A stretch of 64,000 nucleotides of DNA from Candidatus Saccharimonadota bacterium (GCA_046350735.1 JAXLZU010000001.1:12530-76529); one strand, 5' to 3'; shown: positions 15,706-31,111, counted from the first letter of the stretch. Program-made: numbers and translations. The notes: a model not told the origin generated them from the sequence alone.

Positions 15706-15779
15706 TACAAAAATATTGTCATTCTGAGGCACACAGTTCTTACTTTGTTCAAACAATATTGTTCGAGGTAATCCGAGAA

Positions 15780-17105
15780 CTACTGCAAGCTCTTTTGTAT
15801 CTCTAGGGTTACCGCTGCAGCGGCTAGGTTGGTGGCTATCTTAGAATCGTACCCTGCTAAATAATTACTAACCATCTCGCGCAGATTGTTATTGGTGGCA
15901 TAGTTAATTCCCCTGTACCAATCACTAGCAGTGGCTATCTGGCGGGCAAATGGGGCCAAGTCTTTATCGTTATACTGTTGAGCAACAAGATCTCTCCTTG
16001 CTGCTGGCCATAGACTAGCCTGAGAGTAAAGTAGTTGTTGGTTTTTACTAGTAGCAAAGCCTAAGAAGTCCCAAGCAATCTCGCTATTCTTACTCGTCTT
16101 GCTTACTCCTTGTGTAAATATTACCCCATAATTAAGTGGTGTTTTAGGGTTGGTTTGTGGTAGAGCAACCATAGTAAAGGGTAGGTTGGTATTCTGTTTG
16201 CGTAGGGTCTTAGCTACCATTGGATAATCTATCATCATTTGTGTCTTTCCAGTTGCAAAGGCAGTTACGCTCGAGCCCAGCGCATCGCTCCAGGTATAGT
16301 TCTCTTTGCTGGGCTGAGCAAAGCTAGCATAATATTCTAATGCCTTGCTGCCAGATGAGTAGCCAGTACTATCTGCAAGCTGAAAAGTAGCTTTGGTAGG
16401 GGGTGAGTTTGTCATAACAGCACCATTTTGCATCATAAACATACTAATAATATCAGGGTAGCTATGAACAGCGGCAGTACCGAGAGCAGCTCCAGAACTA
16501 TATAGCGTCTGGCCTTGCTTATTACGAACACTACTATTGGCTTTATCAAACTCTTGCCAGGTACTTGGTGGTGAGCTAATATTGGCTTTTTTAAATGCAT
16601 CGGTATTATAAAACAAACCAAGTGTAGCAATACCAAACGGCATGCCATAGATGTTCTTGCCACTTACTAGGCTTTTACTAGCAAAATCGGCAAAGGTTTG
16701 ATTAAATTGCTCGGCAGTTATCACACTCTCAGGCGCAGGCTGGAGTGATTTTTGATAGAGCGGTAAGCCATCGTTACGAAATCCAAACATATCAGGCAAT
16801 GAACCAGCAGCCTGGGCCTGCAAAACTTTTGCCTGATAATTAGCCGGGTCTATATAGGTAATATTTACCGTAACATTAGGATGTAGCTTCTTATAGTTGG
16901 CCAATACTGCATCTAAATTACTGGCTTCATCACTTGGCAACCAGTAGCTAAGAGTAATTGGCGAGGTGGGGTAGACCACTTTTGACTGATACTCGATACT
17001 TGGTGAAGTAAAGAGTCCGCTACTCTGTGTAAGAACATAGATAAGTGTGGCGATAATTAATCCACATAGAATAAGTGCAGTCAGCTTGAGGTAGCGATGT
17101 TTCAT
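15780..17105 (-). CDS. ABC transporter extracellular solute-binding protein (family 1, sugar-type); orphan (no permease/ATPase adjacent)
   Basis: Start trimmed to MKHRYLKLTALILCGLIIATL (signal/anchor; minus ATG at 17105). ~440 aa with SBP_bac_1-like composition. Confidence 0.55.
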   Translation of the reverse strand: MKHRYLKLTALILCGLIIATLIYVLTQSSGLFTSPSIEYQSKVVYPTSPITLSYWLPSDEASNLDAVLANYKKLHPNVTVNITYIDPANYQAKVLQAQAAGSLPDMFGFRNDGLPLYQKSLQPAPESVITAEQFNQTFADFASKSLVSGKNIYGMPFGIATLGLFYNTDAFKKANISSPPSTWQEFDKANSSVRNKQGQTLYSSGAALGTAAVHSYPDIISMFMMQNGAVMTNSPPTKATFQLADSTGYSSGSKALEYYASFAQPSKENYTWSDALGSSVTAFATGKTQMMIDYPMVAKTLRKQNTNLPFTMVALPQTNPKTPLNYGVIFTQGVSKTSKNSEIAWDFLGFATSKNQQLLYSQASLWPAARRDLVAQQYNDKDLAPFARQIATASDWYRGINYATNNNLREMVSNYLAGYDSKIATNLAAAAVTLEIQKSLQ

Positions 17106-17143
17106 ATAAATATTGTACCAGACAAGCAAACTCAATAATGACT

Positions 17144-17232
17144 GGCGGAGAGGGAGGGATTCGAACCCTCGATAGAGTTGCCCCTATACCACCTTTCCAA
17201 GGTGGCGCACTCGGCCACTATGCGACCTCTCC
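17144..17232 (-). tRNA. tRNA-Ser (anticodon GGA), long variable arm, CCA encoded
   Basis: Reverse complement GGAGAGGTCGCATAGTGGCCGAGTGCGCCACCTTGGAAAGGTGG...GGGTTCGAATCCCTCCCTCTCCGCCA. Anticodon loop TTGGAAA. Confidence 0.85.
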
Positions 17233-17309
17233 GTATCTGACTACTTTATCAGTTTAGCAAGTTGTTATCTATTAAAAAACCGGCTCATGTCTATTAGAGC
17301 CGGAAATAC

Positions 17310-18257
17310 TTATTTACCATACGAAATACTACGTACGCCTGGCGTGTCCAGGACAATCTGATGCAGGTCTGTAGGGCTAGGTGGTCTTGGAGGTGCTGGA
17401 ACAGACCGACGAGGGTGCGTCGACCCTGGAGGAGGAGGAATTACCCGTTGAGGCGAACCTGGTTGCCTCTGTGTCCACAGCGATGTTGTCTCGCTAGTTC
17501 TTGAGGCAGACTCTGCACTATCATCGGCCTGAGGCAGCTTATTGCCTCTACGGCCAACAACCTTTACCGCATATCTATCAAAAGACTCGATGGTGCCAGG
17601 CGCTACATCGGCAATAGTTCTGGGAATGGGTGGTGGCACCCTAAATGCTCCTGGAATATCTCGAGAATCAATCACTTCAATCTTACTTCTCTGCAAGTCC
17701 GGTGAAATTGGCAAGAATGACACAAAGGCAGTTCTTAGACCAAGCCTGTGTGCTGACTCCAGTACCTTCCTAGTATTCTTACCATCAGGTGAAACGTTGA
17801 AATCATTGGTCATAATAACAAGTACATCACCCGTCTCGGCTTCCTCAATGAAAGCTAAAGCAAGCCCAATTAGATCATCATCGATGTCATTCACTTTATC
17901 ACTATAGAGGGTACCATCGGCCTGAGCTCGCACCTGTACATCCCAACCATCTCGCTCGAGAGCATACCGAAATTTATCTTGCTTATCCACCGAAGATTCT
18001 TCCTCACCATCAGGTGAAGAGTCAGAAACCCTCTTAATAAAGATTGTCTTCTGGAAATCACCATCATCAATACCAAACTTATCACACAAATACTTAGCAA
18101 CGGCGTCGTAACGCAGACCAAAATCTTGAGGGCGCTCCTCGTCGGAAGCCTCCCATAACTCTTTTACCTTAATCATTACGTTTGGGCCGTCCACCAAAAG
18201 CAGTCCTAGTGGACCTGCAGTATCTGTCGATACAACACCAATATTTTGCGTGGTCAT
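17310..18257 (-). CDS. NYN (LabA-like PIN-fold) domain protein with Pro-rich C-terminal tail
   Basis: N-terminal LGLLLVDGPNVMIK and central VLVIMTNDFNV acidic blocks fit the NYN/LabA nuclease-like fold. C-terminus PPPPGSTHPRRSVPAPPRPPSP. Confidence 0.5.
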   Translation of the reverse strand: MTTQNIGVVSTDTAGPLGLLLVDGPNVMIKVKELWEASDEERPQDFGLRYDAVAKYLCDKFGIDDGDFQKTIFIKRVSDSSPDGEEESSVDKQDKFRYALERDGWDVQVRAQADGTLYSDKVNDIDDDLIGLALAFIEEAETGDVLVIMTNDFNVSPDGKNTRKVLESAHRLGLRTAFVSFLPISPDLQRSKIEVIDSRDIPGAFRVPPPIPRTIADVAPGTIESFDRYAVKVVGRRGNKLPQADDSAESASRTSETTSLWTQRQPGSPQRVIPPPPGSTHPRRSVPAPPRPPSPTDLHQIVLDTPGVRSISYGK

Positions 18258-18339
18258 CTCTCTCTATCCTTTTTCTGGGGTACTACAATCACATTATTTA
18301 TATCATATTGATACAAATAATGCAATATTAATGTATTAG

Positions 18340-19380
18340 CTAGCTAAGTTGGGCTTTCAGCTTTTGAACTTGTGGGACTTTTTCTGGATCTACGCCATTG
18401 AGAAGCGCACAATAACCAGCTGTATAGCCGGCAAAAATTACTGCATAGAGTAGCTCTTGCAGAGGGGTTGTGCCTGCCATCTGCATGGTGTTAAATACTA
18501 CACCTTGCTCTTTTATTAGCTCGGTTGTTACTTGAATACGTTTTTTCATGCCCTTGTCTTCAAACTGCGAAACTATCTGTAAGCCCCCAAATTCTTTATG
18601 GGTAGGTAGCCTCCAGCCCTCAAGTTCGTTATGATCGAGCTCAGAATAAGTATTGTACCAGGCCATTTGCTTGGCATCCTCATTAAAGCTAATCTTCCAG
18701 ATATATGCTGCTGAGGCGAGCAGTGGACTAGCATACACAATAACTGGCTTGCCGGCTAGTTTTATGGCCAGTTTTTTTGCTGCATTGTCTTCGTCAATAT
18801 CAGGGCTGAGACGCAATTTGGCGGTATTTAAGAAGTCTGCTGTATCTTCGAGCTCTCGTACTACATCTATCGATACAAGTCCCATATTTTGTATGGCACA
18901 GGTAATAGCACGTAATCCTGCAAAGATTGCCAGACGAGGCTGATCACACTCGGGCAACTCTAAAACAACGCAGTTTTGCTCTCTGGCTTGCTCCAGTAAC
19001 TTGCCACCATTAGTAATTACGAGTATTTGGGCGTTATTCTTTTTAGCTTCTTCATAGGCATGGAGGGTTTCGGCAGTATCACCAGAGTAACTACTAATAA
19101 TAACTAGGCTATGCTCGTTAACATAGCCCGGCATCTGAGCACCACGACAGACCTCTAGTGGTACTGTAAGACGTGTGTAAAGCCAATTCTTAAGCAGGTT
19201 ACCCGGCAAGGCACTACCACCCATGCCACAAAAAACTATGTTATGAATGCCTTCACCATCTTGGTTTGTAAGAGTATCACGCATATCTTCGCCATAGGGA
19301 AGTCGCAAATGATCGGGCATTGCATCTACTGCCGAAAATATACCATTTAGCTTTGCATGGGAGAGATTAGTTAATTTCAT
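18340..19380 (-). CDS. bifunctional phosphoglucose/phosphomannose isomerase (SIS domain, PGI/PMI family)
   Basis: IVFCGMGGSALPGNLL, SYSGDTAETL SIS motifs. ~346 aa typical for the archaeal/bifunctional PGI-PMI family. Confidence 0.6.
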   Translation of the reverse strand: MKLTNLSHAKLNGIFSAVDAMPDHLRLPYGEDMRDTLTNQDGEGIHNIVFCGMGGSALPGNLLKNWLYTRLTVPLEVCRGAQMPGYVNEHSLVIISSYSGDTAETLHAYEEAKKNNAQILVITNGGKLLEQAREQNCVVLELPECDQPRLAIFAGLRAITCAIQNMGLVSIDVVRELEDTADFLNTAKLRLSPDIDEDNAAKKLAIKLAGKPVIVYASPLLASAAYIWKISFNEDAKQMAWYNTYSELDHNELEGWRLPTHKEFGGLQIVSQFEDKGMKKRIQVTTELIKEQGVVFNTMQMAGTTPLQELLYAVIFAGYTAGYCALLNGVDPEKVPQVQKLKAQLS

Positions 19381-19424
19381 CTACTTATTAGTATACTCTA
19401 GAAATTAAAAAAGCGACTGAAAAT

Positions 19425-20240
19425 TCAATCGCTATTCGATGCTTTCGCTACGAGATGACCCGACTCATCATAAAATACACCAGAGTACTGCATGCTTTTT
19501 AGCTCTTCTAGGATAGTTCTTAACTGTCTTAGGCTGAGATGTAGCAAGCCATGATGTCCACGGTATTCATCGTGGTAATTGTGGGACAGAAAGCTATCTG
19601 CCCCCTCAATGCTCATGATCTGTCGAATTAATGCTACTTTTCTCTCAAAGACACCAAGCTTGCCGGCGATTTCCTTAAGTTGCAAATACGTGCAGCTTGA
19701 GAGGGTTACTCCTGGGTATTCTGTACTGTAAAGATCAAAGAATTGATTCTGGCGAATTCGTTCGTAGATATTACACCAACGAAGTGCCTCTCGAGCCTCG
19801 TCGACTGTGGCTGAAAGCTCATTAAAGACGCGTCCGCGCATGGCCTCTTTGCGTATATATTGCTTGAGTGCCGGATGTGTAACCAATAAAGACATATAAT
19901 ACACATCTCTAGCAGAACGCCCAGCATAGAGCTTTAGTTGCTCTGCTTGCCAGTGGTCTTCCATAGGCATCAGTACGCGCTTAAAGAATTCTACCCACGA
20001 AGAAAGTACCGCATCTTCTATAAAACTCTCTTCGCTATATTTCCTTACCAGGCGAATACGTCTCTGCCAGCTTATGGAAAACTGCCTAAACAGTGGAGTG
20101 TTGTTATATACTTCTGCAATCAATAAATAGACCTGACTATTCTCGAGAGCATACAGATCTTCAATACTTCTAGGACTAATACGGGTATGGTCGTCGGCAA
20201 AGACGACTCGCTTAAGGCGTTCTTTCTTTTGGTTCGACAT
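19425..20240 (-). CDS. hypothetical protein (271 aa)
   Basis: ORF with upstream palindromes (gttgac...gtcaac; acaagtaa-aag-ttacttgt at 20296-20314). No family recognised. Confidence 0.35.
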   Translation of the reverse strand: MSNQKKERLKRVVFADDHTRISPRSIEDLYALENSQVYLLIAEVYNNTPLFRQFSISWQRRIRLVRKYSEESFIEDAVLSSWVEFFKRVLMPMEDHWQAEQLKLYAGRSARDVYYMSLLVTHPALKQYIRKEAMRGRVFNELSATVDEAREALRWCNIYERIRQNQFFDLYSTEYPGVTLSSCTYLQLKEIAGKLGVFERKVALIRQIMSIEGADSFLSHNYHDEYRGHHGLLHLSLRQLRTILEELKSMQYSGVFYDESGHLVAKASNSD

Positions 20241-20343
20241 CGTTCACCCCTTTTTGAAAGGTTGACGGTGTATGCACCATAATCTACAAGTAAAAGTTAC
20301 TTGTGTCAACGTAGCCTAACTACTACGGTCTGGGCAAGTACTA

Positions 20344-20372
20344 AAAAAGAGCCTTGTTTGGCTCTTTTTTAG
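20344..20372. terminator. bidirectional intrinsic terminator between convergent genes
   Basis: aaaaaagagc-cttgtttg-gctctttttt. Confidence 0.6.
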
Positions 20373-20389
20373 TGTATACAGAATAGTTA

Positions 20390-20824
20390 TTAAACCGGGT
20401 TTACCTTAATCTTCTTAACTTTGTCTTCTGGTACTACCTTTGGAATCTCGATAGTTAACACACCATCTTTAAGGCTAGCATTCGCTTTCTCAGAAACCGT
20501 ACTGGTAGGCAAAATAACTGAGCGGCTAAAACTTCCCCAGAAACATTCTTGTACATAGTAGTTGTCTTTCTCGATAGTTTTTTCTTCTTTGCGATCACCG
20601 CGAATAGTTACTACGTCTTCAGATATTGCTACATCAATGTCCTCAGGCTTTACACCAGCAATAGGTGCTTTAATAACTATCGTATCTTTGGTCTGATACA
20701 CATCTACAGCTAGCTGGCCTTCAAATTCTTCTTCACCAGCCCATTCTTCTACTGCACCTTGGCCTTCATCTAAAAACTCATCTTCTAAAATTTCTTGCTC
20801 AACCTGATTTTTACGTCTTGCCAT
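20390..20824 (-). CDS. Hsp20/alpha-crystallin family small heat-shock protein
   Basis: VYQTKDTIVIKAPIAGVKPEDIDVAI...GVLTIEIPK alpha-crystallin domain. Own TTGCAA-N18-TATAAT promoter and aaggag RBS. Confidence 0.8.
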   Translation of the reverse strand: MARRKNQVEQEILEDEFLDEGQGAVEEWAGEEEFEGQLAVDVYQTKDTIVIKAPIAGVKPEDIDVAISEDVVTIRGDRKEEKTIEKDNYYVQECFWGSFSRSVILPTSTVSEKANASLKDGVLTIEIPKVVPEDKVKKIKVNPV

Positions 20825-20898
20825 AAAAAATTACTCCTTATGTTTGCTCTTTTTTCTGTTACTTCTTATTATAATCAGATAACGTATAGGTTTGCAAG

Positions 20899-21564
20899 AT
20901 GAGTTTAGTAGAAAGTCTAATTCAGGTTATCGCTCCAAGTAGTTGCAAAATCTGTAATAGTGAGGGGAGCTTACTATGTACAGACTGTGTAGCAACCCAT
21001 ATTACCGCCAGAAAACCAGCCTGCTTCTGGTGTAATACACTAACTCCAAAAGGACAAACCTGTACACGATGTAAGAACAAGACATATCTAAGTGGAGCAA
21101 TTATTCCATTTCGTTACGAGACTGCTATTCGCGAGTTAATATATGCGCTTAAATATGATGGTAATAGAGAAGCTGCACGACTCTTTGCAGGTTTGCTTAG
21201 CAGTAGTATTGATACAAATAACTTTGATGTAATTAGCTTTGTACCTACCACTGGGGTATCTCAGCGCAAGAGAGGCTACAATCAGGCCCAGCTAATTGCT
21301 ACCCAAGTGGGTCGGCTAACTGGCCTACCGCTTGTTAATACCCTACTGAGAAATACACATATCGACCAAATTGGTTTAAACCGCACGCAGCGTCTAGAAG
21401 CAGTAAAGAACAATTTTACTCACACATCGCATAATATAGATAGCAAAAGAATACTATTGGTAGACGATGTTATTACCACCGGAGCAACCATAGATGAGTG
21501 TGCCTCTACTCTAAAAAAATCAGGTGCAAAACAAGTTTGGGCATTAGCCATCGCTAAGAAGTAG
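20899..21564 (+). CDS. comF: ComF-family protein (double zinc ribbon + phosphoribosyltransferase domain)
   Basis: CxxC...CxxC...CxxC N-terminal cysteines and PRTase motif LLVDDVITTGATIDE. Confidence 0.7.
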   Translation: MSLVESLIQVIAPSSCKICNSEGSLLCTDCVATHITARKPACFWCNTLTPKGQTCTRCKNKTYLSGAIIPFRYETAIRELIYALKYDGNREAARLFAGLLSSSIDTNNFDVISFVPTTGVSQRKRGYNQAQLIATQVGRLTGLPLVNTLLRNTHIDQIGLNRTQRLEAVKNNFTHTSHNIDSKRILLVDDVITTGATIDECASTLKKSGAKQVWALAIAKK

Positions 21565-21589
21565 TTAATTATCATATACAATACAATCT

Positions 21590-22423
21590 ATGGATTCACC
21601 GCCAAAAATAACTCCATTTCTCGATAAGCTTTATACATTCTATAGTCAGAATGGTCGCCACGATATGCCGTGGCGCAAAGATACTCGGGCCTACTATATT
21701 CTTCTCAGTGAAGTAATGTTGCAGCAGACCCAAGTAGAAAGAGTAAAGACAAAGTTTGTCGAGTTTGTAAAAGAGCTTCCTGACTGGAACAGCCTCGCAG
21801 AAGCAAAACAAAGCAGAGTAGTATCGCTTTGGCAGGGACTCGGTTATAATCGACGCGCTCTCTACTTATGCAGGTGCGCGGAGACTGTAGTAAATAACTA
21901 TAATGGCAATTTACCAAAAAATTCTACAGAACTCCAACGACTACCCGGTATAGGGCCAAATACTGCAGGGGCAATAATGGCATTTGCCTACGACCAGCCA
22001 GTGGTGTTTATCGAAACCAACATTCGTCGAGTATTATTACACGAGTTCTTTGTAGACAAAGAAAGTGTAGACGATAGTGAGTTACTACTTATTCTAGAAA
22101 AAATTATCGCGCAATTGCCAGGTTCGCAGTTTAGCTCGAGAACATTTTACTGGGCCATGATGGATTATGGCACCTATCTAAAGCAACAGGTCCCCAACCC
22201 AAATAGACGCAGTAAGCACTACACCAAACAGAGTCAGTTTGTTGGCTCAACAAGGCAACTGCGTGGCCTAATTCTAAAAGAATTATTGCGCTCCCCGCAG
22301 CAAAAATCTGTTTTGCAAACCGCTGTTAATGAAGTAGATAGTGAGCGATTTAACATAGTGATAAATTCTTTGCTGAAAGACGGTTTTGTTATTCAGCAGG
22401 GTGAGAGAATACAACTCAAATGA
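21590..22423 (+). CDS. HhH-GPD DNA glycosylase, MutY-like, apparently lacking the 4Fe-4S cysteine cluster and the NUDIX-like C-terminal domain
   Basis: PWRKDTRAYYILLSEVMLQQTQVERV, LPGIGPNTAGAIMAFAY HhH-GPD motifs. No Cx6Cx2Cx5C cluster in the C-terminal third. Confidence 0.6.
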   Translation: MDSPPKITPFLDKLYTFYSQNGRHDMPWRKDTRAYYILLSEVMLQQTQVERVKTKFVEFVKELPDWNSLAEAKQSRVVSLWQGLGYNRRALYLCRCAETVVNNYNGNLPKNSTELQRLPGIGPNTAGAIMAFAYDQPVVFIETNIRRVLLHEFFVDKESVDDSELLLILEKIIAQLPGSQFSSRTFYWAMMDYGTYLKQQVPNPNRRSKHYTKQSQFVGSTRQLRGLILKELLRSPQQKSVLQTAVNEVDSERFNIVINSLLKDGFVIQQGERIQLK

Positions 22424-22938
22424 TTATGATTCTTGCCCTTATACTGGTCAGTATGCTGTTTGTAGCGATTTGTGTTATTGCCTGGGATAAAATTGTTGTT
22501 GGCAAAGTGCCATTTATTTCTCTACCAAACGAAATTATCGAGCAGGTGCTTGCTAATGTCTTTATTCAGCCCAACAAAACGGTATACGACCTTGGCTGTG
22601 GCGATGGTAGAGTGTTGCTTGCTGCCGCCAAAAAGCAGCCTAAGGCCACTTACATTGGTATAGAACGGGCATTTTGGCCCTACTTGCTTGCCAAATACAA
22701 AACCCGCACGGTAGAGCAGATTTCTATTTATCGCGGCGATATTACCAAGCTAACCTTACAGCAGTCGGCTTTGGTGGTGTGCTATTTACTGCCAGAGCTA
22801 TTGGCAAAGATTCAATTTAACGGCCAAGATGTAGTAAGCATCGAGTACCAAATACCGGGCCGCAAACCAAATAAAACAATTGTATTAAAAAAACATTCCC
22901 GACTTGTCTCGAAAATGTTTTTTTATAACGCTAATTAA
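22420..22938 (+). CDS. small class I SAM-dependent methyltransferase
   Basis: Motif I VYDLGCGDGRVLLAAAKK. N-terminal TM segment. ATGA overlap with upstream gene. Confidence 0.5.
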   Translation: MIMILALILVSMLFVAICVIAWDKIVVGKVPFISLPNEIIEQVLANVFIQPNKTVYDLGCGDGRVLLAAAKKQPKATYIGIERAFWPYLLAKYKTRTVEQISIYRGDITKLTLQQSALVVCYLLPELLAKIQFNGQDVVSIEYQIPGRKPNKTIVLKKHSRLVSKMFFYNAN

Positions 22939-23318
22939 ACCTTAAAGATACCAAGTACAAAGTTAACAATAACAAAAGAGAGTATCGCTACAATCAAACC
23001 AATCACCGAGTAGAGAATAGTATCTTTGGCGGCTCGTACGGCATTTTCGTCACCATTAGACAAAGTATAGCGAAAACCACCAATAATTATCATAATTACC
23101 GATACAATGCCAATTGCTACCAAGAGGAAGTTAACAATAATCGACACGTAGCCACCAGAGCCCGTAACACTACCCTTGGCCAATCCATTTGCGCTACCTG
23201 CAGCATTTACGCCTGCCTGCAAGCCACCAGATACATCGTCAGCAAATGCAGTTGGGACTGCCAAGAAGGTAGCACCAAGTACAGTAGCAGTAGTAATTGT
23301 TTTGAGTGTGTTTTTCAT
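22935..23318 (-). CDS. VirB2/TrbC-like putative T4SS pilin, paralog 1
   Basis: Start trimmed to MKNTLKTITTATVLGATFLAVPTAFA (signal peptide; minus ATG 23318). Two hydrophobic helices flank loop GGFRYTLSNGDENAVRAAKDT. Core shared with three neighbours. Confidence 0.5.
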   Translation of the reverse strand: MKNTLKTITTATVLGATFLAVPTAFADDVSGGLQAGVNAAGSANGLAKGSVTGSGGYVSIIVNFLLVAIGIVSVIMIIIGGFRYTLSNGDENAVRAAKDTILYSVIGLIVAILSFVIVNFVLGIFKV

Positions 23319-23337
23319 TTTAGAAAAGAATTCTATA

Positions 23338-23706
23338 TTAAACACCAAATCTGGCAAGAACAAAGTTGACGATAGCAAAGCTAAGCAACGCAACCACAAT
23401 ACCAATTACGGCATAAAGAATAGTATCTTTAGCGCCAGAAACGGATTTTTCGTTACCGTTAGAAAGTACATAACGAAAACCACCAACAATAAGCATAATT
23501 ACAGCAACAATACCAATAACAATAAGCATTACGTTAATGATGTTCTTAACATTTTCTTGCAGGCTACCGCTAGCAGCGTTAGAAGGTTGTACTGCATCTA
23601 CTGCACCGCTAATGCTTTCGTCAGCACGAGCAGCTACCGGCAATAGAGCTACTGCAGTACCACCACTTACAATTGCGAGTTTCTTTAGTTTGTCTTGGCT
23701 TAACAT
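23338..23706 (-). CDS. VirB2/TrbC-like putative T4SS pilin, paralog 2
   Basis: Signal peptide MLSQDKLKKLAIVSGGTAVALLPVAARA, then IINVMLIVIGIVAVIMLIVGGFRYVLSNGNEKSVSGAKDTILYAVIGIVVALLSFAIVNFVL. Confidence 0.5.
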   Translation of the reverse strand: MLSQDKLKKLAIVSGGTAVALLPVAARADESISGAVDAVQPSNAASGSLQENVKNIINVMLIVIGIVAVIMLIVGGFRYVLSNGNEKSVSGAKDTILYAVIGIVVALLSFAIVNFVLARFGV

Positions 23707-23828
23707 TTTTTTGTCTTTCTCCTTTGGTTGAATAACGTTATTTTATTACCTTGTATTATGGCTTATATTCTACCAGAAAACAAGCAAAAAGAAAAAAGAC
23801 TAAGCTTACTTAATATAATTAGTATCTT

Positions 23829-24119
23829 TTACTTAAATACCGAGATAACAAAGTTAACTATTACAAAGGCAAGAATAGTAACTATTAAGCCAATTACTGC
23901 ATTAGTAATGGTACTCTTGGCAGTCCGGGTCTTATCTTCGCTACCACCCGAGGTAGAATATTGAATCCCTCCAACAATAATGAAGATTACAGCCACTGCA
24001 CCGGCAACGAAGAGTAGAATATTAGTTACTCTACTTATTAACACAGTAAAATCTGACGGCCCAGGCACGCCATTTGGTACATTAAAAGTGTCTGATAATA
24101 GGAATTTTATATAGTTCAT
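23829..24119 (-). CDS. VirB2/TrbC-like putative T4SS pilin, paralog 3
   Basis: ILLFVAGAVAVIFIIVGGIQYSTSGGSEDKTRTAKSTITNAVIGLIVTILAFVIVNFVI has the same two-helix core. Confidence 0.5.
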   Translation of the reverse strand: MNYIKFLLSDTFNVPNGVPGPSDFTVLISRVTNILLFVAGAVAVIFIIVGGIQYSTSGGSEDKTRTAKSTITNAVIGLIVTILAFVIVNFVISVFK

Positions 24120-24161
24120 ATTGTCTAAAGTATAGTTTTTTTACCACCTAAAAAGCAACCC

Positions 24162-24797
24162 TTACTTAACAAATGCATTTAAGACACTAATGACTATACC
24201 TACCGACAACGACATTATTAACCCAATAATTGCATAGGTTATTGTAGTTTTAGCTTTAGTTACCTTGTTAGAATCACCAGCTGAAGTTGTATACTGTATT
24301 CCACCAATAATAATAAAAATGACTGCTAGGGCACCGACTGCAAAGAGCAGAACACTTATAACATTATTACTTAAATCAGTAACTCCCTTGAGTTTAGTTG
24401 TATCAACATTTGCAAATATTCTAGTATTTAATAAATTGAAAATTGCGTTAAAAGAGATTAGAAATCCTAGGCTAACTGCTGCTTGCACCAGTCTGTCCTT
24501 GGCCGATTTTATTCTATCTGGACTACCACCTGACGTTACGTATTGTATAGCTGATACAAGTATTACTATTGTTAATACAATACCAACTATGCCAATTAAA
24601 TAGAGAACGATATTACCTATTACAACGCTTAATGCATTGTCACCCGAAATACTACCTTGGTTTGCGCAAAAAATCTGCTTTCCTGCATCACTTAATTTCG
24701 AGCAATCGAGGTCTGCAGCAAAAGCCGGTACATTAATAAACACAATAGCTAAAACCGCAGTAAGTATTGATAATAAAAGCATTTTTGTTCGGCCCAT
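24162..24797 (-). CDS. tandem-duplicated (two-module) VirB2-like pilin paralog 4
   Basis: Two successive copies of the core: ...IVLYLIGIVGIVLTIVILVSAIQYVTSGGSPDRIKSAKDRLVQAAVSLGFLISF... and ...LLFAVGALAVIFIIIGGIQYTTSAGDSNKVTKAKTTITYAIIGLIMSLSVGIVISVL... N-terminal signal/TM. Confidence 0.5.
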   Translation of the reverse strand: MGRTKMLLLSILTAVLAIVFINVPAFAADLDCSKLSDAGKQIFCANQGSISGDNALSVVIGNIVLYLIGIVGIVLTIVILVSAIQYVTSGGSPDRIKSAKDRLVQAAVSLGFLISFNAIFNLLNTRIFANVDTTKLKGVTDLSNNVISVLLFAVGALAVIFIIIGGIQYTTSAGDSNKVTKAKTTITYAIIGLIMSLSVGIVISVLNAFVK

Positions 24798-24875
24798 TTG
24801 TTTATTATTTTAGCGTGAATTTCGTTTTTTTGCTATTACGAGCACAGATATCTATAATATTAAGCACAAGCGCTT

Positions 24876-27155
24876 ATGAAAAAAATCCTCCAAATCCTTA
24901 GCGTACTACTATTGTCGTGCCTGGCGGTAGTGCTTTTTGGTGTAGCAAATCACCAAGAAGCGAAAGCTGATGATTGTGGGGCAATAAATAAATACAACTT
25001 TATTAATGCTTCCGTTATTAAATACTGTGGAGGTGGAGACTACTATTACAGCCCTGCTCTAACAGCAGCAAATTCTGCAGCCGGGTCACCAATCTTTGTT
25101 AAAGGGACATTTGATACTAATACAAAAATCTTTACGCCTGATAGTAGCAACCAGGTTCTTCAGATTATTACTAACCCCAATGATGCTGCACAAACTTTGG
25201 CATGTATAGGTGTAAAAGGAGGTGCACAATCTCCCTGTGACTCAGATAATAATTTACTTGGTGTACAACAAGCTAAGTCAGTAGTGCCAGAATTAAAAGA
25301 TTATTGTGCAGTTACTCAAACAGGAAGTTGTAAAGATATTACGAATGGTCAGACAGTAAGTAATCCTAAAACACCTTTTACCGACAAGATTGGAGAAATA
25401 CAGGGCGCTCAAGCAAAAGTCGGACAAGATGGGGACTGTATTGATAATCCATTAAGTTTTTTCCTGTGCCCATTGTATAGTGCGATAGGCGAAACGGTAG
25501 ATGGACTTAGTAAGTTCTTAGTAGATCAATTAACGATTGAATCTCTAACCGGGCAAGATGCAGGTAGCAATGGGGGTATTACTGGTGGTTTTAATAGGTT
25601 AAGAAACGTTGCAAATTCTGTCTATATATTAATATTCCTCATAATAATATTCTCTAATTTTGTTAATTTTGGATTAGAGAATTATACAGTCAAGAAACTT
25701 CTGCCGCGACTCATAGCCGCGATAATTTTAACCCAATTTGCTTTTTTAATTTGTACATTATTAGTTGACTTTTCAAATGTGTTGCTTGCAACCATACCTT
25801 CTATTATTCAGGGGGCAAACCCTAAAAGCTTAGGGGAGTCAGTGCAAAGTAATTTCGCAACTTTGGTCAATCAACAAGGTACAAATGGTGCTGCAGCAGC
25901 ATTAAATGGGCTAGTAACTGGTATGGCATATTTTGTTTTGATTTTGATTTTAGCAGTTCTCGCATTAGTAATTATAATAATCGCACTTGCATATATAGTA
26001 TTTCGTAATATATTTCTTATTATTCTTGTGTTCCTCAGTCCATTAGCAATCGCAGCTTGGGTATTACCACAAACCCAAACTTATGCAAAAAAATGGTTTA
26101 CATGGTTTATTAAGCTACTCTTAATGGGGCCAATAATAGGCTTGATACTTTCAGTTGTTGTCGTAGTCCAGCAAATATTTCAGAGTTCAAATAATAAATT
26201 TTTATTAGCTATCTCAGTGTTTGTGCCGTTTTTTGGATTAGCAATCATACCAAAATCTCTAAAATGGAGTGGGGATGTTATGAGTGCAACTGGCAGTTTA
26301 GTTACAAAATCTGCGGTTGGCAAAGCCGCTGGTGGTGCTGTTAAAAAGAGTGCAAAAGAAGGCACTATAGCCGAGAAGAGTGGTAAAGCTATTGAATCCT
26401 TTGGTAAGCGCACAGGTAGTGTTGCTCTTGAGGCTAGAGGAGCACAGCTTAGCAAAGTAAAAGCTGGAATTGCCCGAGAACGTATCTCTAAGCTCAGTCT
26501 TGATAGACAAATTGAATTGGCAAGCAAGGGTAAGGGGAACTCCAAAGCACTTGCACAAGCTGCTATTAATGAGAAGCGTCAGCAGTTATTAAATTACAGA
26601 AATCTAGATGGTCAACAGCTGAGAGACCTGGAACGTTTGCATGGTAAATCAGATGCAGATATCGCTGCGCAATATGGGTTAAATATTGAAGATGGCAAGG
26701 TTAAACCTCAATATGATAATACAGGCCAATTAATAGCAGGGGACCCTAACAACGTTAGCTACAACAATCCATATTGGAATAGTGGGGGCCAAACCGGACC
26801 ACAACCGGGTACCGGCACTAACACTGCTACACCAGCAGCCCCAACCCCTCCCGCAGGAGCCACACCCGGTGGCGGAGGCGGCGGAAGACCAGCACCTGCC
26901 GCTGCGCCCGGAGGAACAGGAACCTCAGGTACCGCAACGCCTGGTACCGGAGCAGGTCCCGGCCAGGCTCGCAGCTCAGCAGCACAGTTTAATCGTGGAG
27001 CAAGAGCAGGGCGAGCTGCAACAGGTTCTAGCGCTGCACCGCTTTCTAACCCGAATGCTACACCTCCACCAAATCCAGCCGGTGGGCCTCCTGGCGGAGG
27101 TGGCACACCGCCAGCACCTCCAGCCGGGCCACCACCAGGTTTCCCCGGGCCATAA
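24876..27155 (+). CDS. VirB6/TrbL-like polytopic T4SS membrane protein with Cys-rich N-terminal ectodomain and Pro/Gly/Thr-rich low-complexity C-terminal tail
   Basis: Signal peptide, ~230-aa Cys-containing ectodomain, 5-6 TM helices (LLPRLIAAIILTQFAFLICTLLVDF...), K-rich cytoplasmic region. C-terminus PAPAAAPGGTGTSGTATPGTGAGPG...PPGGGGTPPAPPAGPPPGFPGP is encoded by a local GC-rich tract (26750-27155). Shares LSFFLCPLY motif with downstream paralog. Confidence 0.55.
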   Translation: MKKILQILSVLLLSCLAVVLFGVANHQEAKADDCGAINKYNFINASVIKYCGGGDYYYSPALTAANSAAGSPIFVKGTFDTNTKIFTPDSSNQVLQIITNPNDAAQTLACIGVKGGAQSPCDSDNNLLGVQQAKSVVPELKDYCAVTQTGSCKDITNGQTVSNPKTPFTDKIGEIQGAQAKVGQDGDCIDNPLSFFLCPLYSAIGETVDGLSKFLVDQLTIESLTGQDAGSNGGITGGFNRLRNVANSVYILIFLIIIFSNFVNFGLENYTVKKLLPRLIAAIILTQFAFLICTLLVDFSNVLLATIPSIIQGANPKSLGESVQSNFATLVNQQGTNGAAAALNGLVTGMAYFVLILILAVLALVIIIIALAYIVFRNIFLIILVFLSPLAIAAWVLPQTQTYAKKWFTWFIKLLLMGPIIGLILSVVVVVQQIFQSSNNKFLLAISVFVPFFGLAIIPKSLKWSGDVMSATGSLVTKSAVGKAAGGAVKKSAKEGTIAEKSGKAIESFGKRTGSVALEARGAQLSKVKAGIARERISKLSLDRQIELASKGKGNSKALAQAAINEKRQQLLNYRNLDGQQLRDLERLHGKSDADIAAQYGLNIEDGKVKPQYDNTGQLIAGDPNNVSYNNPYWNSGGQTGPQPGTGTNTATPAAPTPPAGATPGGGGGGRPAPAAAPGGTGTSGTATPGTGAGPGQARSSAAQFNRGARAGRAATGSSAAPLSNPNATPPPNPAGGPPGGGGTPPAPPAGPPPGFPGP

Positions 27156-27162
27156 AAACCCT

Positions 27163-27196
27163 ATCGTTATTTGATAGGGTTTTATCTTTATCCATT
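27163..27196 (+). terminator. intrinsic terminator after first VirB6-like gene
   Basis: aaaaaccctatc-gttatttg-atagggtttt followed by atcttt. Confidence 0.55.
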
Positions 27197-27346
27197 ATAC
27201 TAGTACAAAAACATTTACTTTATTATATAGTTCTGATATAATTACTCATTAACTCTCCAGATAGAGTCTCGGTTAAAAAATTCGAGAGTTAATATCTGCA
27301 AGATAATAAGCCAAATGGCTACAAAAGAGTTAGTGAGTACTATGTA

Positions 27347-29314
27347 ATGGCAAACAAATCTACAAAATTTGCCCGTATATTCTCTGCGCGAAAAAGTATT
27401 ATTGTCGTGTCGCTTTTGGTTATGCTAATATCTAGTATTTTGCCGGCTGTTGCAACTGCCGCACCAGATACACAACAGACAACTAATACTTCAACCACAC
27501 AGGCAGTTAACTCAGTACAACCAACTACTCCAACCACCATCACCCAAACCACTGTGCCAGATAGCCCAGATAGCATGCAGACCTGCGACCAAGCTGCCGG
27601 GCCACTAAGCTTCTTCTTGTGCCCACTCTATGCCATGATAATGAAGGGTATTAATTGGTTGGCAGGGCCAGACGATAGTATCTTGGTACAGATGCTGCGT
27701 GTCCCACCATTGCAATTTACTAAAGACGTTGGGCTTAGCCGTGCCTATGGCAACATATTAGCATTTGTAAATAGCTTATTTATATTAGTCTTCTTAGTAA
27801 TTATTATTCTTAGTCTCATAAAAGACTTTAGTTTTTTAGAAAATTATCATCTCAAACAAACTCTGCCAAGGCTTATTGCAGCAATTATCTTGGCACAATT
27901 TGGATATCTTATATGTGCAGCACTGGTAGATATTGGTAATATTCTTGGCGCTCTGGCTCCTCAAACCTTAGCTGCTGGGGTACTTGGTACAAATGCCAAG
28001 CTGCCAGGATTGGCTGATAGTATTGTTGGTCTACTTGCATTTGGCAATGCAAAGGCAGTAGGTACTGGTACTGCAGTGGTTACGAATGTACTCTTTGGTG
28101 GCGGTACCGGTATTGTATTTATCTTAATGTTCTTAATGGCAATTGCCGTGCTCTTTGCATTATTGCTTGCTTTTATTTATATGGTGGCACGTAATTTAAT
28201 AATTGTCTTACTTGTACTAGCAGCACCATTAGCCTTCTTGGCCTGGGTATTACCGGGTACACAAAGCTTCTTCTTTAGATGGGGAAGAAATCTTATTAAG
28301 CTAATTATGATGTATCCTCTTGTAGTAATCGTTATTACAACCGCTGAGATACTAGCGTTTCTTTTGCAACATCCAAGTCTCGACCCAAATGTCTATACCG
28401 ATAATAGACTGTATCTATTAATTGGTGGTTTGATACCGTTTATTGCATTATTAATGATTCCAAAACTACTTAAACTCTCAGGCGATATCATGGAGGTAAC
28501 TGGTGGTGCTGTGGCCGGCTTTGTGGCTGGCAAGGTAGCTAGTAAGGGTATGGAAAGTGGAAGGAATGCACATGCCGGTGCAAGAGATAGGCTTGCCCAG
28601 TCTAAATTTGGCCAAGAGAACCGCTTTGGCCGAGCTATGGCAGGTGGTGGTACTATGGCCCTCGTTTCGCCAAACAATACTAAATCAATCAAACGATTGG
28701 GTGAAGCCCGGAAACGTGCCAATGCAGAATACGAAAGTGCTGCCAACCTTGGCACTGATGATGAGCTAAAAGCAATGCTTGGCCACAAAGATACAGTGGC
28801 TCGCCAAAATGCTATTATTGGTTTGGCCAAACGTGGCAAGCGCGACATTATTGCCGAAGGTCTGCAGTCTGGTCAAATAAAACCTATTGATATGACTGCC
28901 TTAAAAAATGCTAAATTCGATAGTATGGATTCGATGCCAGACTTACGAAGCTGGGAATTCGAGACTGATCCTGCCAAAGGTACACCAGGTGTTCCAAATT
29001 CCTTCTATACTAATCTAAACGCTGGTGGCTGGGCAGGTGCAAATGGTGCAACTCAGCAAGATTGGACTATGAACCGTGTCTTTAACCAAGCGAAAAATAA
29101 ATATGAATATGTTGGTTATTCTGCCCAAAAGATTCAACGATTTAAAGCTAGTCAGTTAGAGTCTATTTTGCAAGATAAAGAAGTGCGTAAGAAAATGGAC
29201 GAAACTGTTCGACAAGAACTCTTTAATTACGCACAGGCCAATGGCGGAATTCATGGTAATGACCATGCTAAAGCTATTATGAATAATATGACCAATACCG
29301 GGTCATGGTCGTAA
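27347..29314 (+). CDS. VirB6/TrbL-like polytopic T4SS membrane protein, paralog 2
   Basis: Signal peptide, T-rich linker, CDQAAGPLSFFLCPLY motif. TM core LPRLIAAIILAQFGYLICAALVDIGNIL... is collinear with paralog 1. Cytoplasmic C-terminal domain. Confidence 0.55.
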   Translation: MANKSTKFARIFSARKSIIVVSLLVMLISSILPAVATAAPDTQQTTNTSTTQAVNSVQPTTPTTITQTTVPDSPDSMQTCDQAAGPLSFFLCPLYAMIMKGINWLAGPDDSILVQMLRVPPLQFTKDVGLSRAYGNILAFVNSLFILVFLVIIILSLIKDFSFLENYHLKQTLPRLIAAIILAQFGYLICAALVDIGNILGALAPQTLAAGVLGTNAKLPGLADSIVGLLAFGNAKAVGTGTAVVTNVLFGGGTGIVFILMFLMAIAVLFALLLAFIYMVARNLIIVLLVLAAPLAFLAWVLPGTQSFFFRWGRNLIKLIMMYPLVVIVITTAEILAFLLQHPSLDPNVYTDNRLYLLIGGLIPFIALLMIPKLLKLSGDIMEVTGGAVAGFVAGKVASKGMESGRNAHAGARDRLAQSKFGQENRFGRAMAGGGTMALVSPNNTKSIKRLGEARKRANAEYESAANLGTDDELKAMLGHKDTVARQNAIIGLAKRGKRDIIAEGLQSGQIKPIDMTALKNAKFDSMDSMPDLRSWEFETDPAKGTPGVPNSFYTNLNAGGWAGANGATQQDWTMNRVFNQAKNKYEYVGYSAQKIQRFKASQLESILQDKEVRKKMDETVRQELFNYAQANGGIHGNDHAKAIMNNMTNTGSWS

Positions 29315-29376
29315 GACAGAGTTAAAGCATAAGCCTCATCTTGCCACTCAAGATATAATACGGCATACTTATAGAT

Positions 29377-30198
29377 ATGGGTCAGTATAAAGTTCCTCAA
29401 GATGTCGAAACCGAAGATAAAATCTTAGGGCCACTTTCTGTTAAGCAATTTATCTATGTAATTATTGGTGTACTCTGGGCATTTTTAATGTGGCGATTGT
29501 TTAGTTGGTTCTTGCCACTCGCTGCAATCTTAGCCCTGCCAGTAACTGGTTTTATGTTACTACTTGGTTTTGGTCAGCGCGAAGGTGTGCCATTTGAAGA
29601 CTATGTAGTGGCATTTATTCGCTTTTTAGTCTTACCGCGTAAATTAGAATGGCAGAAAGACGATACCAAAGAAACTATTACCAAAGATTTGGCTCCTAAA
29701 GAATCTAACGAGCCAACCCAAAAGAACGTTACTAAAGGTCAATTAAAACAGTTAGCAAGTATTATCGATACACGTGGTGGTGGTAAAGACTCAAGCATTC
29801 AATTACAAGAAAATGATACCGCAGCCGAATATGCCTCGCGCGTTATTGGTCCTCAATCGGCCGGCCCCAGTGGTGCTGTAGTAACGGTACAGAATCAATT
29901 TGCCACTCCAAAAGATGATATTTTTGAAGACACCCAACAGTCACAGGGTGTAGGACAGCTTTTACAAAATGCTGAGGTCGATGCACGCCAACAAGCAGTT
30001 GCGCAAGTACAGACTGTATTAGCCAACCCAACAGCTGCTGCTCCGTCACCTCAACCAGCCTCTGCACCAAATCCTGCAGCAGCACTATTGGCTCGTAAAA
30101 ATAGCAATTTACCTGTTGCCACGGTCGCAAGGCGCGCCGCCGAACAACAACTTAGTCCTGGTGAAGTAGTACAGTTAAGACAGGGTGGTGCACAATAA
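29377..30198 (+). CDS. small bitopic membrane protein with Q/A-rich tail; VirB3-like by position/topology (upstream of VirB4)
   Basis: Two N-terminal TM helices (FIYVIIGVLWAFLMWRLFSWFLPLAAILALPVTGFMLLLGF) followed by a hydrophilic tail. Gene-order argument only. Confidence 0.3.
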   Translation: MGQYKVPQDVETEDKILGPLSVKQFIYVIIGVLWAFLMWRLFSWFLPLAAILALPVTGFMLLLGFGQREGVPFEDYVVAFIRFLVLPRKLEWQKDDTKETITKDLAPKESNEPTQKNVTKGQLKQLASIIDTRGGGKDSSIQLQENDTAAEYASRVIGPQSAGPSGAVVTVQNQFATPKDDIFEDTQQSQGVGQLLQNAEVDARQQAVAQVQTVLANPTAAAPSPQPASAPNPAAALLARKNSNLPVATVARRAAEQQLSPGEVVQLRQGGAQ

Positions 30199-30247
30199 AA
30201 GACCACCTGTAAAACACTCGTGTTTTCTTATATAATAAAAGATTACT

Positions 30248-31111
30248 ATGACAGAAAATCAACCACCCCAATTAACCCCTGGTCAGCGTGAATACGTTAA
30301 TTCAGTAACGCCGCCCAAAAAATCCAAAAACAAGCAATTAAGCACCCAAGCTCATTTGCAATTTTCGGAAATAAAAGATGGGGTAGTAATTATGCGCGAT
30401 GGTAGCTTGCGTATGGTAATTCTATGTAGTCCAACCAACTTCGACCTCAAAAGTCCTGCCGAAAAAGATGCTGTTGAGTTTGCTTTTCAGGGCTTCTTAA
30501 ATGGCCTTCATTTTCCTATTCAAATTGTTATACAATCTCGCCGTATCGACCTCGATGGGTATTTAGAAAAACTCGAGAAAATCCAGAGTGATCAGCCTAA
30601 CCCACTTCTTTCTAGCCTTATGGAAGACTATATCTACAATATTCGTGGTCTTTTAGAAGAAGTGAATATTATGGAGAAAAGATTTTATGTGGTGGTACCA
30701 TACTATGTGGCCGGGGTTAGTAAAGAAAATATTCTTACCAAATTAAAAGGCGTGTTCTCAAATGAAGAAGCAACCCAAACAGTTGGTGAATACGAAAAAC
30801 GTAAAAACGAGCTTGTACAGAGAACGAATCAAGTAGCTCAGGGCTTGGCCCAGGTGGGAGTACGCTCGGTTATTCTTAACACCCAAGAAATAATTGAGTT
30901 ATTCTATAACTCCTATAATATTGATGAGTCACAAAATCAATCGCTGGCTGATGTTTCGCAAATTAATGCACCTGCTGTTACCCGCAAGGGTGGTCCAGCC
31001 ACGCTGCATCCACCTACCCCACAAGAAGCCATGCCAGATGATCTATTTTCGGCGGCGCAAAAACAAGCTATGCAAAATCAGAATCCACAAAATCAAGGAG
31101 TACCACAATAA
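30248..31111 (+). CDS. T4SS protein resembling a VirB4 N-terminal-type domain (possible split VirB4 partner), translationally coupled to VirB4
   Basis: KDGVVIMRDGSLRMVILCSPTNFDLKSPAEKDAVEFAFQGFLNGL..IQIVIQSRRIDLDGYLE resembles VirB4/TrbE N-terminal blocks. Stop TAA overlaps the VirB4 ATG (TAATG at 31109-31113). Confidence 0.35.
   Translation: MTENQPPQLTPGQREYVNSVTPPKKSKNKQLSTQAHLQFSEIKDGVVIMRDGSLRMVILCSPTNFDLKSPAEKDAVEFAFQGFLNGLHFPIQIVIQSRRIDLDGYLEKLEKIQSDQPNPLLSSLMEDYIYNIRGLLEEVNIMEKRFYVVVPYYVAGVSKENILTKLKGVFSNEEATQTVGEYEKRKNELVQRTNQVAQGLAQVGVRSVILNTQEIIELFYNSYNIDESQNQSLADVSQINAPAVTRKGGPATLHPPTPQEAMPDDLFSAAQKQAMQNQNPQNQGVPQ

Follow-up and report, generated by a model that had tools for sequence, protein, structure and literature searches.

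A stretch of 64,000 nucleotides from a Candidatus Saccharimonadota bacterium (GCA_046350735.1, JAXLZU010000001.1:12530-76529), analyzed at its full length and called the window throughout, carries at positions 22935-24797 an array of four consecutive minus-strand open reading frames (ORFs), g1 to g4, which encode small pilin-like proteins and lie beside the genes of a type IV secretion system (T4SS). An earlier note on this DNA had claimed four consecutive pilin-like genes at this place, and all four are present and score above the threshold of the family PF18895 (T4SS_pilin). The first of them, g1 (22935-23318), encodes a single-module T4SS_pilin protein of 127 amino acids (aa) at array position 5, with a predicted signal peptide (aa 1-26, ending AFA/DD), a long Gly/Ala-rich N-terminal tail (N-tail) and a two-helix core. 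Its true start is the ATG at 23318, and the TTG at 23405 was rejected as an over-extension into g2, the gene being likewise called at 127 aa in relatives. The protein encoded by g2 (23338-23706; 122 aa, position 4) also has a single module and a signal peptide (aa 1-28, ARA/DE), with a ribosome-binding site (AGGAG) upstream of the gene, and the single-module protein encoded by g3 (23829-24119; 96 aa, position 3) is without a signal peptide in the window strain. In contrast to these, g4 (24162-24797; 211 aa) encodes a two-module pilin that covers positions 1 and 2. Its signal peptide (aa 1-27, AFA/AD) and a Cys-Cys N-tail (aa 28-55) are followed by module A (aa 56-128, nucleotides 24414-24632) and module B (aa 139-211, nucleotides 24165-24383), both delimited by a module hidden Markov model (HMM) built in this analysis. 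The linker (aa 129-138) lies between the two HMM envelopes, and a broader linker segment (aa 128-145) was used when the variability of g4 was analyzed.

The conserved two-helix core with its loop motif that the earlier note had described is visible in an alignment of the five modules, which share a hydrophobic helix, GG(F/I)xY, a loop of the form S-x-G-acidic, AK(D/S/T)T and a second helix. This motif is clean in g1 to g3 and more diverged in both modules of g4 (SAIQY...SAKDR...FNLL and GGIQY...KAKTT...ISVL), and about 70 of the roughly 100 mature residues belong to the two long hydrophobic helices. That the fourth gene holds two complete cores, as had also been claimed, is borne out by two separate PF18895 stretches and by the two matches to the module HMM. 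Since three independent assemblies (L092, L096 and L098 among the related loci compared here) are 99.95-99.99% identical to the window and contain the same fused ORF, and since the four-gene order is repeated in diverged relatives, the array is not a product of chance or of assembly.

The fused orthologs of g4 (P0001-P0013) are 186-211 aa long, show 44-83% identity in the family alignment and were found in a small clade. One fused gene followed by three single-module genes, as in the window, was found at L001, L003, L006, L014, L016 and L023, and five single-module genes at L010, L011, L015, L018, L020 and L022, with four seen at L021, which lies near a contig end. In the split arrays the first two genes are the counterparts of modules A and B: ...ILALLGI is the end of gene A and MKFLLAVTLFEGVDTNSL... 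the start of gene B, the two genes overlap by a few bases or lie one in-frame stop codon apart, and the junction is homologous, the linker RIFANVDTTKL of the window corresponding to TLFEGVDTNSL in split lineages. At the fused junction the start codon of module B has been lost. Two of the split loci have a single stop codon between modules A and B in the same frame (TAG at L010 2544-2546, TAA at L011 7224-7226), with an ATG within 3 nucleotides, so that one substitution would be enough to interconvert the fused and the split state. On a neighbor-joining tree of VirB4, which carries no support values, lineages with the fused gene surround L015 and L020, in which it is split, and for this reason fission of an ancestral fused gene would be slightly more parsimonious than three separate fusions.

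Multi-module pilins are common beyond this clade. A multi-module pilin gene was present in 26 of 89 loci, at varied array positions and in one case with three modules, and an exhaustive search found 2-8 modules per chain in 142 of 147 additional representatives, a list in which multi-module proteins are over-represented, as a two-module query was used. Eight proteins (P0121-P0125, P0136, P0157 and P0206; 500-1040 aa) have five to eight T4SS_pilin modules in a row and are in effect a whole 'array' as one polypeptide. A further variation was seen at L017 (2443-3594), where the fused-pilin ortholog of 376 aa has an extra N-terminal region of 212 aa before the conserved Cys-Cys tail. This region consists of a signal peptide and a probable globular domain, which implies that a position-1 pilin can carry an appended ectodomain. 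The mature N-tail of position-1 pilins (g4 aa 28-46, window 24714-24662) has a conserved Cys pair, with C32 invariant and the second Cys 8-13 residues later. In relatives, a Cys pair was also seen in position-5 pilins, but g1 of the window is without one. The N-tail pair of position-1 pilins possibly forms a disulfide-stapled exposed loop.

Within the window, the cores of the paralogs are 25-62% identical, the closest pairs being g1 with g2 and g3 with module B of g4. In a tree of the modules from 15 loci, including lineages with six and seven genes, modules grouped by array position across lineages and not by genome, which argues that the paralogs are old and specialized. Neither an invertible element nor long identical repeats or obvious phase-variable tracts were found at the locus, either with a repeat tool or, as this tool omits runs of 1-3 bases, by additional inspection by eye. 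With core identities this low, grouping by position and no repeats for recombination, the array does not resemble a set of recently amplified, interchangeable pilin copies. In comparison with near-identical strains, g1 has 0-1 nonsynonymous versus 1-11 synonymous codon differences and g2 has 0 versus 2-6; relative to L001, which represents a different species-level genome, g2 has 3 versus 20. Both genes are thus under strong purifying selection. The ratio of nonsynonymous to synonymous substitution rates (dN/dS) on the loop of g4 is not meaningful between the available alleles, as the variable block, at 28-63% identity, is beyond nucleotide alignability. In its place, synonymous and nonsynonymous counts were used for g1, g2 and the g3 core, and amino-acid identity per region for g4.

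Leaders were judged by eye and by hydropathy. The claim of a signal peptide in every gene stands for g1, g2 and g4, which have leaders of the n-h-c type, but not for g3, which begins MNYIKFLLSDTFNVPNGVPGPSD, reaches a maximum 12-residue hydropathy of only 0.68 before the core and has no hydrophobic leader. Module B of g4 is likewise without one. Two allelic forms of g3 with an identical transmembrane core were observed, one of 96 aa without a signal peptide (window and L001) and one of 111 aa with a canonical leader ending AHA/DL (L003 10612-10947 and L090 5543-5878). The fused-pilin allele of L003 and L090 has only a stunted leader, and some g4 alleles have no signal peptide. A reciprocal rule for the leaders of the two genes, present in g4 and absent from g3 in the window and the reverse in L003, was dropped, as L006 apparently lacks both. 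The loops have a net charge of +2, and the N-tail and linker of g4 are neutral or acidic. Mean pairwise identity among g4 alleles is low in the signal peptide (23%), the N-tail (29%) and the linker (37%) and higher in the helices (53-65%) and the loops (62-86%, with 86% for loop 1). The net-positive loops together with the variable N-tail and linker fit a topology in which the termini and the linker would be outside and the loops inside, as in VirB2.

The assignment of the four proteins to PF18895 is clear, with 37.4 bits for g1, 39.6 for g2, 50.9 for g3 and 67.6 for g4 (in two stretches) at a gathering score of 26.6 bits. The classical TrbC family PF04956, with a gathering score of 27.9 bits, was matched below threshold by g2 (21.1 bits, E 3.6e-4) and g3 (18.2 bits, E 0.003), and neither g1 nor g4 was among its listed matches. 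For the NCBIfam model NF045849 (Mbov_0395, a pilin-like conjugal transfer protein of integrative and conjugative elements in Mycoplasma), the 40.0 bits of g1 coincide exactly with the cutoff of 40 bits, and g2 (35.9), g3 (33.9) and g4 (36.6) are below it; the array proteins are related to this family but are not equivalogs. A profile of 37 single-module homologs aligned with hhalign to an Enterococcus conjugative-plasmid protein annotated 'TrbC/VirB2 family' with 85% probability (E 5.9e-6), and the core of g2 was modeled by AlphaFold2 (AF2) as a hairpin of helices 49-81 and 86-120 with a predicted local distance difference test (pLDDT) score of 82-89. Of the proposed identity as VirB2-like pilins, the pilin family and the link to a TrbC/VirB2-annotated protein are thus retained, but PF04956 itself stays below threshold. 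The kinship with VirB2 is probably one of remote homology, and the genes are filed here under PF18895 and the Saccharibacterial pilin array. In Priestia megaterium pFDU301A, an unannotated ORF of 132 aa (L099 8995-9393) with the loop motif GGLRYILSNGD is 34% identical to g2 and lies as a single copy directly upstream of PrgI-like and VirB4-like ORFs in this Bacillota replicon. It is a single-copy relative, outside the Candidate Phyla Radiation (CPR), of the CPR pilins.

The T4SS operon is of the monoderm type, is transcribed divergently from the array and starts 78 bp from g4. The first of its genes encodes VirB6-like protein a (24876-27155, plus strand; 759 aa), which has a weak match to PF04610 (TrbL), with PF19590 (TrbL_3) matched in orthologs. 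It is composed of a signal peptide, a Cys-rich N-terminal domain of about 210 aa, a polytopic membrane region at about aa 241-462 according to hydropathy, a charged stretch and a Pro/Gly-rich C-terminus. The latter (aa ~610-759, window 26700-27155) is a long low-complexity tract rich in Pro, Gly, Ala and Thr, which causes a local rise in GC content and overlapping spurious ORFs on both strands. VirB6-like protein b (27347-29314, plus strand; 655 aa) matches PF04610 with an E value of 0.0029 and TrbL_3 in orthologs.

These two proteins and the g4 end of the array are replaced between strains that are otherwise nearly identical. The locus L003 (GCA_964570715.1) is 97-98% identical to the window over 14213-24030, 24829-24967, 26853-28545 and 29377-34738. 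It is without detectable nucleotide similarity at 24031-24828, which comprises all of g4 and the first ~30 codons of g3 (24031-24119), at 24968-26852, the body of VirB6-like protein a, and at 28546-29376, which includes the C-terminal ~255 aa of VirB6-like protein b, nucleotide identity falling from 98-100% to 28-63% over ~24030-26850 and ~28550-29300. The island at 24829-24967 between two of these variable blocks, of which the intergenic region forms a part, is 97% identical to L003. At the protein level, VirB4, the TraC-like protein and g2 are kept at 100% and g1 at 99% identity to L003, in contrast to 51% for g4, 85% for g3, 45% for VirB6-like protein a and 76% for VirB6-like protein b; similarly, relative to L001 VirB6-like protein a is 36% and VirB4 98% identical. 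The last ~100 residues of VirB6-like protein a are kept between strains despite the replaced body. Several unrelated samples contain the L003-type allele within the same flanking sequence, so it did not arise as a chimera of assembly. Three variable blocks were seen among strains otherwise 97-100% identical (L003, L090 and L097 were compared); L090 has other breakpoints, with a window-like N-terminal domain of VirB6-like protein a, a third allele for the rest of that protein and an L003-like g4. L093, a candidate for a further variant, was set aside for the 1507 N in its sequence. Taken together, the pattern suggests a hotspot of recombination in the surroundings of the divergent promoter. The proposal of the earlier note that a host-contact structure is diversified gains support for g4, the N-tail of g3 and the VirB6-like genes, which are replaced, and is contradicted for g1 and g2, which are under strong purifying selection. 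For g1 (region ~22850-23400), the nucleotide identity to L001 (11479-11862) is 100% although the flanks are only 60-85% identical, which suggests a recent transfer or gene conversion between the lineages.

Downstream of the VirB6-like genes, the operon continues on the plus strand with genes for a PrgI-family (VirB3-like) protein (29377-30198; PF12666, 59.3 bits), a TraC-like protein that resembles the N-terminal part of VirB4 (30248-31111; PF26593 in orthologs; NF045975 VirB4_plasma, E 1.2e-5) and a VirB4-type ATPase (31111-32985; PF19044, 99.1 bits, and PF03135 CagE_TrbE_VirB), the signature protein of T4SSs, 6.3 kb from the array. These are followed by an M23 peptidase for cell-wall remodeling (33052-36447) and a multidomain hydrolase with SLT, GDSL, glucosaminidase and VanY domains (37426-39867), with a gene of unknown function (36444-37433) between these wall hydrolases. 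The claimed adjacency of array and T4SS is therefore confirmed by two VirB6-like, a PrgI, a TraC-like, a VirB4 and hydrolase genes whose order is kept in relatives. No family of a relaxase or a coupling protein (T4CP) was found among the window ORFs scanned, some small ORFs being outside the scan. In the 78-bp intergenic region between g4 and the gene of VirB6-like protein a (24798-24875), promoter-like hexamers overlap on both strands (plus strand, TTGCTA-17-TATAAT, 24830-24858; minus strand, TTTTCA-17-TATTAT, 24882-24854), both identified by consensus match only, and a candidate terminator of the pilin transcript (22886-22925, minus strand), a hairpin with 17-nucleotide arms followed by a T-run, lies just downstream of the g1 stop codon; neither the promoter nor the terminator scan was above shuffled expectation.

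The rest of the window is ordinary chromosome, with genes for GroEL, TsaD, PGM and Hsp20 and with recF and dnaN (41769-43917), dnaA (44195-45547; TIGR00362, 498 bits) and yidC (46431-47252). The homologs and related loci are nearly all from Saccharibacteria metagenome-assembled genomes. Together with the position of dnaA, this indicates that the array belongs to a Saccharibacterial genome and is separated by about 20 kb from its replication origin. In being tandem PF18895 genes beside virB4, chromosomal and near the origin, the array agrees with the Saccharibacterial and other CPR pilin arrays. Two other regions of the window were conspicuous. Between 14600 and 15700 the GC content rises to 0.54, relative to ~0.40-0.45 around it, and long ORFs overlap (14615-15373 on the minus strand, 14642-15529 and 14740-15567 on the plus strand), one of which was tested and had no Pfam match; this is possibly another low-complexity gene. 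On the plus strand of a lower-GC region, 50916-62000 holds a cluster for sugar-nucleotide and polysaccharide biosynthesis (dTDP/GDP-sugar dehydratase, nucleotidyl transferase, Polysacc_synt_2, UDP-GlcNAc 2-epimerase, glycosyltransferase and DUF7657/DUF7654), likely for the synthesis of cell-surface glycan.

Arrays of this kind have been described before in Saccharibacteria (McLean et al., 2020; Wang et al., 2023; Quiñonero-Coronel et al., 2025), which the earlier note did not take into account, and the array in the window is a further example of this published feature. A conserved array of 4-6 small proteins with Sec signals beside VirB4 and VirB6 was reported in TM7x and likened to the subunits of pertussis toxin, with 11% identity to S1 (McLean et al., 2020). 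In Southlakia epibionticum ML1, for which alone a requirement in epibiotic growth is known (SEML1_0014-0019), the proteins were annotated as predicted pilins within an essential T4SS cluster, and all six pilin genes, SEML1_0014-0019, were scored GD/ES/ES in transposon sequencing (Wang et al., 2023, Table S1). A survey of CPR genomes counted, in 383 assemblies, 441 arrays with 2-11 VirB2-like genes each and a mean identity of 25% within arrays (Quiñonero-Coronel et al., 2025), and a 2025 review repeats the array description. Furthermore, the VirB2-like PrgF was shown to be essential for conjugation of pCF10 and was modeled as a pilus on a VirB6-like pentamer in a preprint of December 2025 (ter Beek et al., 2025). 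Multi-module pilins, fission or fusion between lineages, positional orthology and replacement of a pilin/VirB6 cassette between strains were not found in the literature searched.

On balance, we lean towards the view, to which we give somewhat better than even credence, that a mixed pilus-like conduit is built on a VirB6-like platform from the five modules as non-redundant subunits, with g4 as a covalent pair of neighbors, g1 and g2 as the conserved core, and the tails of g4 and g3 together with the VirB6-like proteins as the exchangeable, host-facing part. Each module would be inserted into the membrane in such a way that its N- and C-terminal ends face outwards and the short loop, with its net positive charge, faces inwards; g1, g2 and g4 would use their Sec leaders, and the leaderless g3 and module B probably YidC. 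Extracted from the membrane, the modules may be passed to the VirB6-like platform, on which they would build up a mixed pilus-like tube or stalk reaching to the host bacterium. In this structure g4 would represent a covalent pair of positions 1 and 2, in which the linker joins the outside C-terminal end of A to the outside N-terminal end of B and the fusion keeps the two subunits adjacent and at a ratio of 1:1. The conserved structural core would be made up of g1 and g2. The part that varies between strains and is prone to recombination would comprise the VirB6-like proteins, the N-tail of g3 and, from g4, the external linker and N-tail, and would probably make contact with the surface of the host. 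What the sequences show directly is family membership, linkage to a T4SS, the fusion/fission relationship, positional orthology, mosaicism between strains and purifying selection on g1 and g2; the membrane topology, co-assembly, any pilus and a role in contact with the host are inferred. Co-assembling non-redundant subunits are favored over interchangeable copies by the positional orthology, the constraint on g1 and g2, the natural fusions and the published essential score of each Southlakia gene, and of the alternatives raised in the earlier note heteropolymeric pili are accordingly the one that gained support. Going further, and as a tentative proposal that we believe less readily, the array may form not a conventional homopolymeric pilus but a position-specific hetero-oligomer of fixed stoichiometry, with one copy of each paralog per layer or short stalk on the VirB6-like platform, in which fusion and fission of adjacent subunits, with 2-8 modules per chain across the CPR, would record the order of neighboring subunits and the fused position-1/2 subunit and the VirB6-like proteins would be an exchangeable host-specificity cassette moved between strains by homologous recombination in naturally competent bacteria.

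Several observations weigh against a mixed pilus-like conduit. To our knowledge, the T4SS in question has not been seen to form a pilus in any Saccharibacterium. The AF2 model of g4 has four long helices at low confidence (pLDDT 63.6, predicted template modeling score 0.37, 13 sequences), was too uncertain for reading how the two hairpins pack and was kept out of the fold search. When the g2 model was compared with the PDB by Foldseek, as the earlier note had proposed for known pilins, no match was below E = 1 (E of at least 1.1), and the 50 matches listed included no conjugative pilin and were generic helical hairpins (chemoreceptors, CnrX, ATP synthase subunit c and others), Foldseek being uninformative for a fold as simple as this hairpin; a profile search of PDB sequences gave a single chance match (E 0.37). 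The neighbor-joining trees of VirB4 and of the modules are both without support values, the allele comparisons cover a handful of strains, and a strict co-variation of g4 with VirB6-like protein a had to be rejected, as L090 combines an L003-like g4 with a window-like N-terminal domain of that protein. In addition, polar effects may account for part of the essentiality scored by transposon insertion, the genes of the operon being tiny. The lack of an observed pilus and the generic outcome of the fold searches would also be expected if the hairpins stayed in the membrane as integral accessory subunits of the translocon, for example as a ring, similar to a c-ring, that encircles the VirB6/VirB3/VirB4 inner-membrane complex or is part of it; 'pilin' would then be a misnomer and the fusions would be multi-hairpin membrane proteins. 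The chains of 6-8 modules (P0121-P0125, P0136) resemble a closed ring of fixed stoichiometry more than the subunit of an open-ended polymer, an ECOD match to 'F1F0 ATP synthase subunit C' is listed for SEML1_0018 (Wang et al., 2023, Table S2), and variable outside-facing tails are also compatible with such a ring. However, that the predicted outside parts (N-tails and linker) vary between strains, and that one of them may carry a domain of 212 aa, fits exposure to the environment, and both the homology to proteins annotated TrbC/VirB2 and the experimental evidence for a PrgF pilus in pCF10 argue for a pilin, so that we regard a membrane ring, although it is the main rival reading, as rather unlikely.

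A different use of the paralogs, as alternative major subunits of which a single one is in use at any moment to switch antigens or host range, has been proposed for the Bartonella Trw and Anaplasma VirB2 arrays, and the analogy was drawn by Quiñonero-Coronel et al. (2025). The multiple diverged tandem copies and the strong strain-level variation at g4 would agree with it. However, the absence of invertible segments, long identical repeats and obvious phase-variable tracts at the locus and the ancient, position-conserved paralogs told against subunit switching as suggested in the earlier note; moreover, each of the six Southlakia genes was scored essential, the two to eight modules often found in one chain force co-expression, and g1 and g2 are under purifying selection, which together make switching improbable. 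The original proposal for TM7x, in which the small proteins would be Sec-exported T4SS substrates or effectors in a secreted complex like pertussis toxin S1-S5 (McLean et al., 2020), can draw on that analogy, on the signal peptides in three of the four proteins and on the T4SS apparatus genes next to the array. It would, however, have to accommodate two hydrophobic helices that take up most of each mature protein, as is typical of integral membrane hairpins and not of soluble toxin subunits, as well as PF18895 membership, TrbC similarity, the lack of a leader in g3 and module B and a similarity to S1 of 11% identity, and we consider it very improbable. That the two-module g4 is an artefact, either a sequencing or assembly error or a recent pseudogenizing read-through joining two genes, deserves mention because at L010 and L011 the two halves lie in the same frame with a single stop codon between them and one base change interconverts the states. 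Yet L092, L096 and L098, which are independent assemblies, all have the fused ORF in identical form, intact fused orthologs are found down to 35-37% identity (L014, L016, L023), loop 1 has 86% mean identity among alleles and the start codon of module B is lost at the fused junction, and the chance of an artefact is close to negligible.

The Saccharibacterial T4SS is the first T4SS reported to be essential for its carrier organism, and the published question of what its pilins build becomes more testable with a fused subunit, its split counterparts and a strain-variable cassette at hand. Natural fusions indicate which subunits adjoin in equal numbers, thereby constraining structural models and arguing against simple pilin switching. 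The division among near-identical strains into a conserved part (g1 and g2) and a replaced part (g4, the g3 tail and the VirB6-like proteins) points to the components likeliest to touch the host, and the leaderless members, together with gain and loss of leaders between alleles, bear on the route by which such hairpins reach the membrane.

Among known systems, the Saccharibacterial pilin arrays of Southlakia and TM7x are most similar, with PF18895 proteins encoded divergently from an operon of VirB6-like, PrgI, TraC-like, VirB4 and hydrolase genes. The Southlakia cluster SEML1_0006-0019 has the same layout, with Hsp20 nearby and close to dnaA, and the same mix of ~95-aa and ~125-aa members, but six separate genes in place of the five modules in four genes of the window, where positions 1 and 2 are fused. 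With the VirB2/TrbC/TraA pilins of diderm bacteria (PF04956; T-pilus, F-pilus, R388) the window proteins share small size, in most cases a predicted signal peptide, two hydrophobic helices with a short charged loop, genes encoded with VirB4, VirB6 and VirB3 homologs, and a proposed assembly on a VirB6 platform. Unlike these pilins, they match PF04956 below threshold, gave no sequence or Foldseek match to solved pilins in the PDB searches, belong to a monoderm host and form five specialized paralogs in place of one major pilin, and no VirB5-like tip protein was identified in the window system; we know of no tandem fusions of classical VirB2. The Gram-positive and Mollicutes systems (PrgF of pCF10, Mbov_0395 of integrative and conjugative elements in Mycoplasma, and pLS20-like plasmids) are likewise monoderm T4SSs of the MPF-FATA type with a charged-loop hairpin. 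However, their pilin is present in one copy on mobile elements that have a relaxase and a coupling protein and move DNA, whereas the window system is chromosomal and multi-paralog, with no relaxase or coupling protein among the ORFs scanned. Several tandem VirB2-like genes, enlarged VirB6-like proteins and a variation proposed to serve host-surface interaction are also found in the rvh system of Rickettsiales and in Bartonella Trw, although this similarity is by analogy only, as lineage and envelope type are unrelated. In contrast to the latter systems, the paralogs in the window are ancient, fixed in position and probably co-assembled, and their variation is one of allelic replacement between strains and not among the copies within a genome.

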